IMG/VR virus record: IMGVR_UViG_3300011894_000040
Coordinates: 1 to 6,835 of that record
From: a virus
Reading direction: 5' to 3' (one strand)
DNA length: 6,835 nucleotides
Below, piece after piece: positions 1,738 to 5,813 of this stretch; position 1 is the first letter of the stretch; the number at the start of each line of letters is the position of its first letter. The translations under genes and the position numbers were made by a program. The notes under the pieces were generated by a model. That model ran no database searches. It was not told the origin of the DNA and saw only the letters and a list, made by a program, of their open reading frames with translations.

Positions 1738-2961
1738 ATGCTAGATCATATTTGCATAAATGCGCCTTTTGAATCCAGCTTCTACTCAGTAGATGCGGAA
1801 GGGCGTTATTTTTTTGTAGATATCGATCTTCACAGTATAGAAATACCGCTTGCTTCTCGTTCTGTTCATAAGAATGACGATGGTTCAATTTCTGCTGCTG
1901 CGTTATTCCATCCGTTTGAGTCGGTTCCGACTCATTACACTGGTATGGCAATGAAAGTTTTTTTTGATTCTTCGTATGAACCTTTTGTACAGATCAAGGC
2001 TTCTCCTGCGAAATTGCTGCAAGGGCATAATGTCTTTGGCAGCGACAACATAGAGCAGGGTGCTATGGAAATGATCGGCTTCTTACATGAAGCTTATCCG
2101 CTTCTTGCAAGGATGCTAGATTGGCCTCGTGCATGGGTTTCACATATTGATGTGACTTACTCAGTACGATTGAAAGACCAGAACACAGCTAAAAAAGTTT
2201 TGGATTTCTTGAGCAATGTCAGCAATGGCCAGACTCGTTTAAGTAACAAGCGTTTCGACAGTTCAGTATATTGGGGAGGTCAGACTTCAAGACTTGTGAA
2301 TCACAAGTGTTATATGAAGCATGACGAATTTATCGCTCAATTTGAGGAGTATAAGCAACTTGCAAAGAAGAACGATAAAGCAGCTCAACGAGTTGTTGAT
2401 GTCATGTCCAATTCGGATCTGATTAACTGGACTGTCGGTCTTTTACGTTTTGAATCACGTTTAAAAAAACGTTGGCTTGAACGTAATGGAATTCCTACCA
2501 ATCTCTTTGATTTAATTAAGTTTCAACGTTCCAATCCAAATTTACTTCAAACACTCTGGACTAAAGCTACTCATAGCATTTTTGATGCCTTACGAGGTCA
2601 AACTATGAAATTAACAGACGATACTAGTGTTCTTGAAGCTATCCAACGATCTGATGTTGTTTTAACCAAATCTGGTAAAGCTTCCCCAACTAAAGTACGT
2701 AATTTATTTGCCATGTATTGTCTTATCCGCGAAAAGGGATTTGATGAAGTTAAAACGACTTATGGCAAGTCTCAATTTCACAATCTAATAGCCCAGTTAT
2801 GTGCTGTACAAGGTCTTAATAAAGGTATCTTGCAGAACTTACATACAGGCAATGCCAACAATATTATTCCGTTTATTAAGTTCGTAGACATAGATTTCAA
2901 TCAACAATTGCCAGATTGGTACGAAGAGCCAGTTTCGCAGTTCAACTACAAAATTGCATAG
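1738..2961 (+). CDS. gII: Replication initiation endonuclease gpII (Ff-type rolling-circle initiator), 407 aa
   Basis: Collinear blocks match M13 gpII as recalled. HPFESVPTHYTGMAMKVF / VQIKASPAKLLQGHNVFG matches HPFESLPTHYSGIAFKIY / VEIKASPAKVLQGHNVFG. LSNVSNGQT matches LRNVSNGQT, and GLLRFESRLKKRWL matches GLVRFEARIKTRYL. NIIPFIKFVDIDFNQQLPDWYEEPV matches NVVPLVRFINVDFSSQRPDWYNEPV, and both proteins end in KIA. Tyr192 (tat 2311-2313, in CYMKH) aligns with M13 Tyr197 (AYLKH). Confidence 0.95.
   Translation: MLDHICINAPFESSFYSVDAEGRYFFVDIDLHSIEIPLASRSVHKNDDGSISAAALFHPFESVPTHYTGMAMKVFFDSSYEPFVQIKASPAKLLQGHNVFGSDNIEQGAMEMIGFLHEAYPLLARMLDWPRAWVSHIDVTYSVRLKDQNTAKKVLDFLSNVSNGQTRLSNKRFDSSVYWGGQTSRLVNHKCYMKHDEFIAQFEEYKQLAKKNDKAAQRVVDVMSNSDLINWTVGLLRFESRLKKRWLERNGIPTNLFDLIKFQRSNPNLLQTLWTKATHSIFDALRGQTMKLTDDTSVLEAIQRSDVVLTKSGKASPTKVRNLFAMYCLIREKGFDEVKTTYGKSQFHNLIAQLCAVQGLNKGILQNLHTGNANNIIPFIKFVDIDFNQQLPDWYEEPVSQFNYKIA
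2605..2961 (+). CDS. gX: gpX equivalent: in-frame internal translation product of gII, 118 aa
   Basis: The ATG at 2605 (Met290 of gpII) sits at the position homologous to the M13 gX start (MKLTDDTSVLEAIQ versus MNIYDDSAVLDAIQ). It is preceded by GAGG (2594-2597) with 7-nt spacing. Confidence 0.7.
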   Translation: MKLTDDTSVLEAIQRSDVVLTKSGKASPTKVRNLFAMYCLIREKGFDEVKTTYGKSQFHNLIAQLCAVQGLNKGILQNLHTGNANNIIPFIKFVDIDFNQQLPDWYEEPVSQFNYKIA

Positions 2962-2969
2962 GTGAGCAA

Positions 2970-3305
2970 ATGAACAATTCACAACATCCGATTATGACAG
3001 TTACAGGCATCCGTAAAGCTGCTGGCGACTTTCAGGACGATAAAGGCAAAACAATCGAGTTCTCAAACACGGTTGTAACTGTATTACAGAATTACTCTGA
3101 GCGTGAGCTTGAACAAGGTGCAATCGGATTCAAATCTACCGATTACAAAATCAAAGGCGCTCAGTTCTTTAATGATTACATGCATCAGAAGCTACCAGCC
3201 GAGGCTGCAATGATCTTTGATTGGGATTTCACGGGCAAACAGCCAAAGGCTGTGTTGGTTGCGCTAGATTTCAATGCGAAGAAACAGGAAGTTAAACCTC
3301 TATGA
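2970..3305 (+). CDS. ssDNA-binding protein candidate (gV position), 111 aa
   Basis: SD AGGTGA (2960-2965) precedes the ATG at 2970; the upstream part of track ORF 2916 overlaps the gII end and is discounted. It lies immediately after gII/gX as in Ff. The motif DKGKTIEFSNT resembles the QGKPYSLNE (M13 gpV) and KGNPYTFQE (Pf3 SSB) DNA-binding wing as recalled. Similarity is weak, so the call is mainly positional. Confidence 0.55.
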   Translation: MNNSQHPIMTVTGIRKAAGDFQDDKGKTIEFSNTVVTVLQNYSERELEQGAIGFKSTDYKIKGAQFFNDYMHQKLPAEAAMIFDWDFTGKQPKAVLVALDFNAKKQEVKPL

Positions 3306-3457
3306 TCAACATAAATCATTTTCAATCAGTTGTTTGCGCGGATTGTGGCGTTAAGTTTAAACCAGCATCACGATATTTAGAGTTGGGTGCTCACAAACCA
3401 CATTGCACACAAATAAGAGAAGAAACGGAAGAAAAACCTGTACAAACAAAGGCATAA
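3302..3457 (+). CDS. Small CxxC...HxxxC zinc-finger-like protein A, 51 aa (MININHFQSVVCADCGVKFKPASRYLELGAHKPHCTQIREETEEKPVQTKA)
   Basis: Not in the ORF track (too short). The ATG at 3302 overlaps the gV-like stop (ATGA coupling), and AGGAAG lies at 3286-3291. It has a CxxC-x15-HxxxC motif and an acidic/basic tail. It is paralogous in pattern to the ORF at 3514. Confidence 0.5.
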   Translation: MININHFQSVVCADCGVKFKPASRYLELGAHKPHCTQIREETEEKPVQTKA

Positions 3458-3513: not shown

Positions 3514-3627
3514 ATGATTAAAAAGATAACACCAATGATGGGGGATAATCAAGTGGAATGTCCTAAATGTTATTCGTATTTTCACCGCAAATATTTGGCT
3601 TTTCACATGTCTAAGTGTGAAGGCTAA
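3514..3627 (+). CDS. Small CxxC...HxxxC zinc-finger-like protein B, 37 aa (MIKKITPMMGDNQVECPKCYSYFHRKYLAFHMSKCEG)
   Basis: SD AGGTGA (3504-3509) precedes the ATG at 3514. The upstream part of track ORF 3403 starts at TTG and reads through the dif-like site, so it is discounted. It has a CxxC-x11-HxxxC motif and shares V.C..C...F...(R/K)YL...H...C with protein A. Confidence 0.5.
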   Translation: MIKKITPMMGDNQVECPKCYSYFHRKYLAFHMSKCEG

Positions 3628-3636
3628 CTGGGGATT

Positions 3637-3852
3637 ATGAGTATGCAGATTGATGATTGCACAGCAACAACGGTAATCAATGGGGTCAATTACTGCGTAC
3701 TCGTCATACATCAACAAAGCTGGCTAGACGAACTCAACAATTTAACAGTTGTCCAAGTTGGTCTATTACTGTCTAGCACAGCGTTGATTTGGTACGTTGC
3801 TTGGGGCATACGTGCTGCTTTAGACCTACTTGGACATGATCATGAGGATTAA
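3637..3852 (+). CDS. Membrane protein sharing the major coat protein's C-terminal motif, 69-71 aa; candidate minor or cap coat protein
   Basis: It has a C-terminal TM (VVQVGLLLSSTALIWYVAWGI). YVAWGIRAALDLL (3793-3831) matches YVGWGIRRALSLL of gVIII (4075-4113) at 10/13 residues. There is no signal peptide and the tail is acidic (GHDHED). The ATG at 3643 has better spacing to GGGGA (3630-3634) than the ATG at 3637. Confidence 0.6.
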   Translation: MSMQIDDCTATTVINGVNYCVLVIHQQSWLDELNNLTVVQVGLLLSSTALIWYVAWGIRAALDLLGHDHED

Positions 3853-3855
3853 CAC

Positions 3856-4119
3856 ATGGAAAATAATCAACAACCTCTACAAGCTACTGATAACACCAAA
3901 AAGGCTGTTACTGCCGTAAAACGCGCAGCTATGACTGCTGGTGTTGTAATGGCAACTACTGCTGCGGCATTTGCTGAAGATGGGGGCACTTCGATTGATT
4001 TAACCACTGGCTTGGCTGGTGTTGCGATTATTGCGGGTCTTCTTTCTGTAGGTAGCCTCAAGGCTGTACCAACATATGTTGGTTGGGGTATTCGTCGAGC
4101 GTTATCACTTCTTCGCTAA
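3856..4119 (+). CDS. gVIII: Major coat protein precursor (gVIII type), 87 aa, predicted mature 47 aa
   Basis: SD GAGGA (3844-3848) lies 7 nt upstream. The leader ends in AFA with cleavage predicted before EDGG. The mature protein has an acidic N-terminus (E, D, D), a hydrophobic core (GLAGVAIIAGLLSVG) and a basic C-terminus (K, R, R, R). It is followed directly by a strong terminator, as in Ff. Confidence 0.85.
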   Translation: MENNQQPLQATDNTKKAVTAVKRAAMTAGVVMATTAAAFAEDGGTSIDLTTGLAGVAIIAGLLSVGSLKAVPTYVGWGIRRALSLLR

Positions 4120-4136
4120 TTGATAAAACAAAAAAA

Positions 4137-4182
4137 AGCTGGGAGGAGCGCACAGCTGTACGCACCTCACCCAGCTTTTTTT
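4137..4182 (+). terminator. Rho-independent terminator after the coat gene
   Basis: AGCTGGG (4137-4143) pairs with CCCAGCT (4170-4176), with further AGG/CCT and GCG/CGC pairs. It is followed by T7 (4176-4182) and preceded by an A-run, so it may work in both directions. Confidence 0.85.
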
Positions 4183-4201
4183 ATAACTGGAGTAAAGCGA
4201 A

Positions 4202-4264
4202 ATGACCGTCTATTACATCATTGTGGTGGCTCTTGCGTTGTGGATCGTCTTGTCGGGGAAATAG
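4202..4264 (+). CDS. 20-aa hydrophobic mini-ORF (MTVYYIIVVALALWIVLSGK), candidate gVII/gIX-like minor coat or membrane peptide
   Basis: Not in the ORF track. GGAG (4189-4192) lies upstream. The stop TAG (4262-4264) is 1 nt before the gIII ATG at 4266, which suggests translational coupling. It is a single TM-length hydrophobic stretch. Confidence 0.4.
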   Translation: MTVYYIIVVALALWIVLSGK

Positions 4265-4265
4265 T

Positions 4266-5812
<1,547 letters not shown>

Positions 5813-5813
<1 letters not shown>

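Follow-up and report, generated by a model that had tools for sequence, protein, structure and literature searches.

The small gene directly upstream of the major coat gene gVIII in an Acinetobacter-type inovirus (ORF71) encodes a putative membrane protein whose C-terminal end closely resembles the DNA-proximal end of the coat protein of the same genome, and in a sister clade the two segments have switched several residues in parallel. We lean towards the reading that ORF71 is a g9p-like minor virion protein of the leading tip, i.e., a counterpart of g9p or g7p in Ff phages; that it enters the virion and sits at the tip is what we infer from gene position, size, topology, and the coat-like helix.

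The DNA analysed here (“the window,” 6,835 nt) is a complete circular inovirus genome, consisting of a 6758-nt unit and a 77-nt terminal overlap from assembly. The phage groups with the filamentous phages of Acinetobacter: its replication gene shares 86% DNA identity with that of Acinetobacter phage M02, and homologous proteins bear Acinetobacter names. Judged by gene order, the succession of gII, ssb, small genes, ORF71, gVIII, terminator, gIII, gVI, and gI is an inovirus structural module (Table 1). The terminator region matches its own reverse complement. The gVIII product gave weak PHROG structural matches and a sub-threshold match to Inovirus_capsid, and the coat family ends in the conserved sequence PTY[VA][GA]WGI[RK]KALSMLR. 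A leader of 40 aa has also been described for the coat of a related Acinetobacter phage (PMC11209303). Among the small genes of this region, the one for a 37-aa mini protein with a CxxC...H...C pattern has conserved counterparts in phage M02 and in many relatives. In one branch (L025, 1519-1686; L026, 684-791), a very hydrophobic 35-aa ORF with a basic tail (MFYLVFLFF...KMRTQR) lies directly 5' of the ORF71 homologue, in the place of the window's zinc-finger gene, and resembles a g7p-type candidate.

Table 1. Features of the window around ORF71 and gVIII (positions in the 6,835-nt stretch).
Feature	Position	Strand	Remarks
gII	1738-2961	+	Phage_CRI
ssb-like gene		+	between gII and the mini zinc-finger genes
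two mini zinc-finger genes	3302-3457 and 3515-3627	+	CxxC...H...C pattern; between ssb-like gene and ORF71
Shine-Dalgarno GGGGA of ORF71	3630-3634	+	8 nt before ATG 3643, only 2 nt before ATG 3637
ORF71	3637-3852	+	longest frame 71 aa; small N-out membrane protein (topology inferred); 2-Cys family 5' of gVIII
N-terminal beta-hairpin (predicted)	3658-3699	+	flanked by invariant Cys8 and Cys20; Asn-Gly turn
juxtamembrane motif SWLDELNNL	3718-3744	+	W29 and N34 invariant; kept in both clades whose tails differ
membrane-spanning part of long helix (predicted)	3745-3810	+	residues 37-58
coat-like motif of ORF71, YVAWGIRAALDLL	3793-3831	+	contains invariant Arg59
Shine-Dalgarno GAGGA of gVIII	3844-3848	+	read as the last two codons of ORF71, GAG GAT (Glu-Asp)
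gVIII, major coat protein precursor	3856-4119	+	87 aa; 25 clusters
coat leader	3856-3975	+	40 aa, ending AFA
mature coat	3976-4116	+	47 aa
coat C-terminal motif, YVGWGIRRALSLL	4075-4113	+	DNA-proximal end of coat helix
intrinsic terminator	4131-4182	+	3' of gVIII; stem-loop then U-run; -26.1 kcal/mol, z = -5.3
hydrophobic 20-codon micro-gene, MTVYYIIVVALALWIVLSGK	4202-4264	+	between gVIII terminator and gIII; Shine-Dalgarno GGAG at 4189-4192
gIII, TspB-like	4266-5813	+
gVI (DUF2523), then Zot-like gI		+	3' of gIII; gI spans the join

ORF71 is encoded intact in about 30 loci from viral, metagenomic, and genomic collections, each time directly 5' of the coat gene, and its homologues form 13 protein clusters of 61-100% identity. 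Absence or frameshift of the ORF in close relatives had been named in the earlier note as grounds for giving up its proposal; neither was seen in any locus examined. Pairwise dN/dS is about 0.2 with mostly saturated synonymous sites, and the value for the coat is 0.32. By these measures, ORF71 is a real, conserved gene that is constrained at least as strongly as the coat gene. Its true start is probably the second ATG (3643), which yields a protein of 69 aa, because the Shine-Dalgarno sequence is spaced 8 nt from this codon and all homologues begin at the equivalent methionine. Stop-codon readthrough from ORF71 into gVIII was considered and rejected: in the window, ORF71 and gVIII do share one reading frame, with TAA CAC between them, but the spacing in relatives ranges from -8 to +5 nt. 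Also rejected as a conserved element was a 16-nt inverted repeat within ORF71 (3750-3765/3821-3836). In the window, this repeat closes a hairpin of about 90 nt just 5' of the gVIII ribosome-binding site (-34.8 kcal/mol, z = -3.4), but a hairpin of comparable stability (z about -2.6 to -3.5) occurs only in L006, L027, L067, and L024, and not in most relatives.

Two database entries are recorded in passing. One predicted protein of the representative protein library (P0040, 2629 aa) has ORF71 profile matches in six separate stretches and is probably a gene-calling artefact over tandem prophage copies, or the product of a wrong genetic code. A 3.5-kb contig labelled MAG: Gordonia sp. (L029, JASLJL010000538.1) places an Acinetobacter-type phage with ssb, the zinc-finger gene, and the start of an ORF71 homologue (80% identity) in an actinobacterial MAG, probably by a binning error.

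ORF71 consists of an N-tail and one hydrophobic segment. An N-terminal signal peptide or leader was searched for and not found, as the earlier note had stated, and its further remarks on the acidic end GHDHED, the basic coat tail, and cysteines in the N-terminal half hold as well. Two of these cysteines, Cys8 and Cys20, are invariant among 21 sequences, together with Trp29, Asn34, and Arg59. The N-tail (residues 1-36) has a net charge of -4 and is free of Lys and Arg; across the family, the net charge is -3 to -5 (mostly -4), and Lys and Arg are absent in nearly all members. The single hydrophobic segment comprises residues 36-58, with a Kyte-Doolittle maximum of 1.74 at residues 36-54. In an AlphaFold2 model built from the family alignment (pLDDT 74.6), residues 10-14 and 17-21 form strands, residues 29-34 a short helix, and residues 38-68 a long helix of 31 residues. 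Sec-independent translocation of an N-tail is established for the Pf3 coat and the M13 procoat. By that precedent, ORF71 presumably inserts into the inner membrane with its N-terminus outside and its C-terminus inside. When the AlphaFold2 model was compared with the PDB by Foldseek, no match fell below E 8, which is unsurprising for a hairpin followed by a single helix, and a sequence search of solved structures with the ORF71 and coat family profiles gave no relevant match. Pfam contains no hit to ORF71 at E <= 1, and neither Pfam nor NCBIfam holds a family for ORF71 or its relatives.

The resemblance to the coat lies at the C-terminal end. The motif YVAWGIRAALDLL of ORF71 and the motif YVGWGIRRALSLL of the coat are identical at 10/13 residues, with Tyr, Gly, Ile, Ala, and one Leu written in different codons; the earlier note had both the motifs and their codons right. 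A single BLASTP comparison of the two proteins aligns 11/17 identical residues (E 1e-5), the hhalign alignment between the profiles of the two families spans 26 columns with 54% identity (E 1.3e-5, probability 81%), and the local score of ORF71 against the coat exceeds that of all 2000 composition-preserving shuffles of the tail (z = 9.2). The motif is conserved in both families and reads L-I-W-Y-V-A-[WS]-[GAL]-I-R in that of ORF71. The claim of a tandem paralogue of the coat as a whole does not stand: the resemblance is confined to the last 14-26 residues, the N-terminal 35 residues have no coat counterpart and belong to a separate, widespread 2-Cys superfamily, and the Pfam models Inovirus_capsid and Phage_Coat_B do not match ORF71.

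The earlier note had also drawn attention to a reversed charge of the tail. However, this is largely a coding by-product. Since the gVIII Shine-Dalgarno sequence falls within the last two codons of ORF71, the terminal acidic pair is, on the reading of this junction, co-determined by the gVIII ribosome-binding site. A Shine-Dalgarno-like motif at -12/-11 from the coat ATG, within the last codons of the upstream gene, is present in 20/21 distinct junctions; the remaining junction, that of L034, has an 8-nt overlap of the two genes and yielded no such motif. In the window's clade the site is written GAG GA[A/T/C] (Glu-Glu or Glu-Asp), with GAG GTA in one branch, and in the sister clade it is formed by codons containing AGG or GGAG. 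The arrangement indicates that ORF71 is translationally coupled to gVIII. The net charge of the tail varies among relatives: the window has -3, most members of its clade have about 0, and the sister clade has +2. The constant feature is a tail that is less basic than that of the coat: the invariant Arg59 is its one basic residue, compared to three within the last nine residues of the coat.

The small protein changes together with its own coat. In the sister clade (L030, L031, L044, L067, and L068), the small protein reads W-L-L-C-W-G-Y-R-x-L-L-K-F-I and its coat x-L-L-M-W-G-Y-x-x-I-L-G-F-L, so that four or five positions have switched in parallel (YVA to LLC/LLM, I to Y, L/M to F). Counted on an anchored 14-residue segment, small protein and own coat share 7.0/14 residues in the window's clade and 6.4/14 in the sister clade, compared to 4.0/14 between the small proteins of the two clades, 4.2/14 between their coats, and 2.7-3.0/14 between the small protein of one clade and the coat of the other. 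Across 14 lineages, summed local-alignment scores are higher for own-coat pairing than for permuted pairing (P about 1e-4); this excess persists without the three Acinetobacter clades (P about 0.01) and when permutation is allowed only within GC classes (P 0.0004-0.001). The likeness is uneven. It is strong in two Acinetobacter-phage clades (z = 9.2 and 9.6), whereas NEU2023 and Dulem virus 58 show it moderately; in PE226, toucan80, and several prophages it is weak, with z of 0.6-1.9 in many lineages. In the L034 lineage it is absent (z = -0.7), and likeness to the coat therefore cannot be strictly required.

The N-terminal part of ORF71 links it to a much wider group. Many inoviruses encode, always just 5' of gVIII, a protein of 57-84 aa that belongs to no curated family. 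All members inspected, from Acinetobacter, Ralstonia, Pseudomonas, and metagenomic phages, have two N-terminal cysteines 9-25 residues apart and, after a linker, one membrane helix that ends in a short tail. The loci were drawn from divergent profile matches, annotated inoviruses, and prophages; a DUF2523 search over 400 genomes gave seven positives, whose loci were used in the lineage sample. ORF71 itself matches phrog_9110 (E 0.0015) and phrog_4644 (E 0.01) weakly, its clade-B homologue matches phrog_9110 at E 8e-7, and hhalign connects the ORF71 family with the toucan80 protein (92.5%, E 4.8e-7) and with PE226 ORF3 (E 4.7e-5). Profile cross-matches join PHROGs 9110, 4644, 4800, and 13391. 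Existing functional labels, namely “putative minor coat protein” (PE226 and p12J in GenBank) and “tail protein” (PHROG 4644), are positional only. A profile search of 1.84 billion representative proteins returned only 6 clusters, including divergent members, and no coat proteins; to judge from this search, the ORF71 family is narrow at the sequence level, and full homology to the coat gains no support. The motif AWG[FI][RK] is common in the superfamily, and the PE226 homologue has a sub-threshold Phage_Coat_B match (E 0.052) in its C-terminal half. Because AWG[FI]R also occurs in members such as that of PE226, whose own coats end otherwise, the suggestion that ORF71 derives from gVIII is unproven, and derivation could have run in the reverse direction.

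A role at the virion tip, of the gVII or gIX kind, had been proposed in the earlier note, and it is the best-fitting one by position, size, topology, and the coat-like packing helix. Homology to the M13 tip proteins is not detectable (hhalign probability 7.9% for pIX and 0.1% for pVII). ORF71 lies directly 5' of gVIII within the structural module in the window and in every relative, and its product is small, has a single helix, and lacks a leader. In f1 and M13, pVII, pIX, and pVIII each consist of one helix whose C-terminus faces the DNA; in the first layer, five pIX alternate with five pVIII around a pVII plug, and pIX bends like pVIII (PMC10175506, PMC10480500). The C-terminal Glu29 of pIX bonds with pVIII Lys40 and pVII Arg33 and is essential (PMC10175506, PMC10480500). 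On the favoured reading, ORF71 would insert into the inner membrane without a signal peptide, leaving the acidic N-tail outside and the C-terminus inside; the N-tail would comprise a disulfide-capable beta-hairpin and the SWLDELNNL turn, from which the single long helix would continue. The inner third of this helix matches in sequence the DNA-proximal end of the own coat, with one basic residue instead of three. Acting at the leading, assembly-initiating end of the virion, ORF71 could take lattice positions beside the first gVIII subunits by means of its coat-like helix, with the DNA lumen closed by the low-charge tail and the N-terminal hairpin exposed as the tip itself. A tip protein in such positions would have to offer coat-like packing residues to the next layer and to follow changes of the coat. 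Several points count against a tip protein: homology to M13 pIX and pVII was not detected, ORF71 is twice the size of the Ff tip proteins, the likeness to the coat is not universal, some mutual similarity is expected among membrane helices that end in aromatic and then basic residues, and SDS-PAGE of related Acinetobacter phages revealed CoaB and CoaA only (PMC11209303).

Alternatively, ORF71 might be a non-structural inner-membrane protein that pairs with gVIII before assembly and stays outside the virion; it might chaperone the coat or serve as its gatekeeper, or else exclude superinfecting phages or modulate the host in the manner of PfsE. Small genes at the same position in Pf phages reportedly have such non-structural roles (PfsE). 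A coat-like helix is equally suited to helix-helix pairing within the membrane, and the conserved SWLDELNNL motif and cysteine pair suggest a periplasmic partner that remains constant while the tail changes. The missing band on virion gels (PMC11209303) fits this explanation too, but five copies per virion would escape gel detection. Moreover, a stoichiometric structural partner better explains why the gene keeps its position and its coupling to gVIII even in very distant inoviruses. Without ORF71 the phage would also lack an obvious leading-tip protein, because among conserved small hydrophobic genes it has, besides ORF71, just the 20-codon micro-gene at 4202-4264. On the whole, we regard a purely non-structural partner as unlikely.

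The likeness could also be a historical trace with little functional meaning: in one or several events, duplication or gene conversion would have carried the 3' end of one gene over into the other. In favour of this, the two genes are direct neighbours with a common orientation, the segments within a genome are more alike than orthologues between clades, which is the classical signature of concerted evolution, and the strength of the likeness varies by lineage, as episodic events would produce. One lineage (L024) even has a 13-nt exact match over the WGIR codons. However, in the window, the same codon is used at 4/9 shared non-Trp residues, with 3.5 expected from genome codon usage; overall, the count is 43/127 with 49.8 expected, and the longest exact nucleotide matches between ORF71 and gVIII are at chance level in 21/22 pairs. 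Recent gene conversion or duplication is thus rejected. Together with a dN/dS of about 0.2, these counts agree with the argument of the earlier note that both genes are maintained as proteins and do not represent a recent DNA copy, and they indicate that the likeness is maintained by selection on the proteins. In both families, purifying selection acts on the motif and synonymous sites are saturated; therefore, any exchange must be old and its product kept by selection, which turns copying into a statement about origin instead of a rival function. As an explanation of the likeness, a mere historical trace is distinctly improbable. That two membrane helices ending in an aromatic residue and arginine at the cytoplasmic interface resemble each other by chance is scarcely credible. 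Trp or Tyr followed by Arg or Lys is indeed common at the inner membrane boundary and many lineages display only z of 0.6-1.9, but the 10/13 identity, the z of 9.2 against shuffles, the E of 1e-5 by both BLASTP and hhalign, the conservation of the motif in both families, and the four or five parallel switches all speak against it.

The micro-gene ends directly before gIII, its stop codon adjoining the gIII ATG at 4266. It was found in 23/23 relatives with sequence in this region, and also in toucan80, PE226, p12J, M02, and others; its pooled pN/pS is 0.28, and it is unannotated in the GenBank records inspected. Its product is possibly another mini-protein of the tip or of assembly, or else a leader peptide for gIII. 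If ORF71 is a leading-tip protein, as we favour, a broader proposal can be made tentatively, which we consider rather less likely to be correct than not: in many non-Ff inoviruses, the leading tip would consist of the 2-Cys protein and a hydrophobic micro-protein of about 20 residues, and the lattice-facing helix of the 2-Cys protein would evolve in concert with the inner end of the coat because of its quasi-equivalent positions in the first coat layers. If true, such a two-protein tip would provide a general rule, readable from sequence, for the compatibility of a cap with a fast-evolving coat.

To our knowledge, Ff is the only group of filamentous phages with tips resolved to atomic detail, and we know of no recognisable g7p or g9p in most other inoviruses, including temperate phages of Acinetobacter, Ralstonia, Neisseria, and Pseudomonas. 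ORF71 and its superfamily are the best candidate for the missing leading-tip protein of these phages. Because its tail and that of the cognate coat have changed in parallel, the compatibility of tip and coat becomes concretely testable, and the N-terminal hairpin, if exposed, is a possible display site. For annotation, three corrections follow: the likely start codon of ORF71, the gVIII ribosome-binding site hidden in its last codons, and the unannotated 20-codon gene.

A minor coat candidate encoded before gVIII is a known kind of protein. As far as the literature searched shows, three features have not been described: the 2-Cys architecture, a tail that closely copies that of the cognate coat, and the parallel change of the two tails. 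Several close counterparts belong to the superfamily. ORF3 of the Ralstonia phages PE226 and p12J (PHROG 4644) shares with ORF71 the position, the 2-Cys N-tail with one helix, and a VAWGFR-type motif followed by an acidic end. However, the coats of these phages end in ..YMWVRRPIK, and the likeness to the own coat is weak (z = 1.2). Proteins of PHROGs 9110, 4800, and 13391 (Acinetobacter phage M02 orf1, Pseudomonas phage NEU2023, blackswan219-1, and toucan80) belong to the same superfamily and are always encoded just 5' of the coat gene, but differ from ORF71 in that their tails are basic instead of neutral or acidic, and in that identity is about 30% or less. In blackswan219-1, the likeness to the cognate coat tail is strong (z = 6.5).

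Other filamentous phages offer counterparts by size and position only. In the Neisseria phage NgoPhi6, the 7.8-kDa Orf3, encoded before the coat gene product Orf4, is presumed to be structural, and a 2.6-kDa protein, Orf12, is encoded in a place similar to that of the micro-gene and may correspond to it, judged by place and size only (PMC7561177). PA0722 of Pf4, encoded just before CoaB, is likewise similar to ORF71 in size and position only; among Pf prophages, it falls into two lineages that coincide with those of the structural genes (PMC7549136). Like ORF71, pIX and pVII of Ff are encoded directly 5' of gVIII, are small, lack a signal peptide, and have a single hydrophobic helix; their N-terminus points outward and their C-terminus towards the DNA, as would hold for ORF71. 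In pIX, an acidic residue close to the C-terminal end is essential (PMC10175506, PMC10480500). ORF71 differs from both in being twice as long, in its N-terminal domain with the 2-Cys beta-hairpin, and in being the only such gene where Ff has two. Finally, M13 pIX and pVIII give no BLAST alignment, whereas the tail of ORF71 closely resembles its cognate coat.
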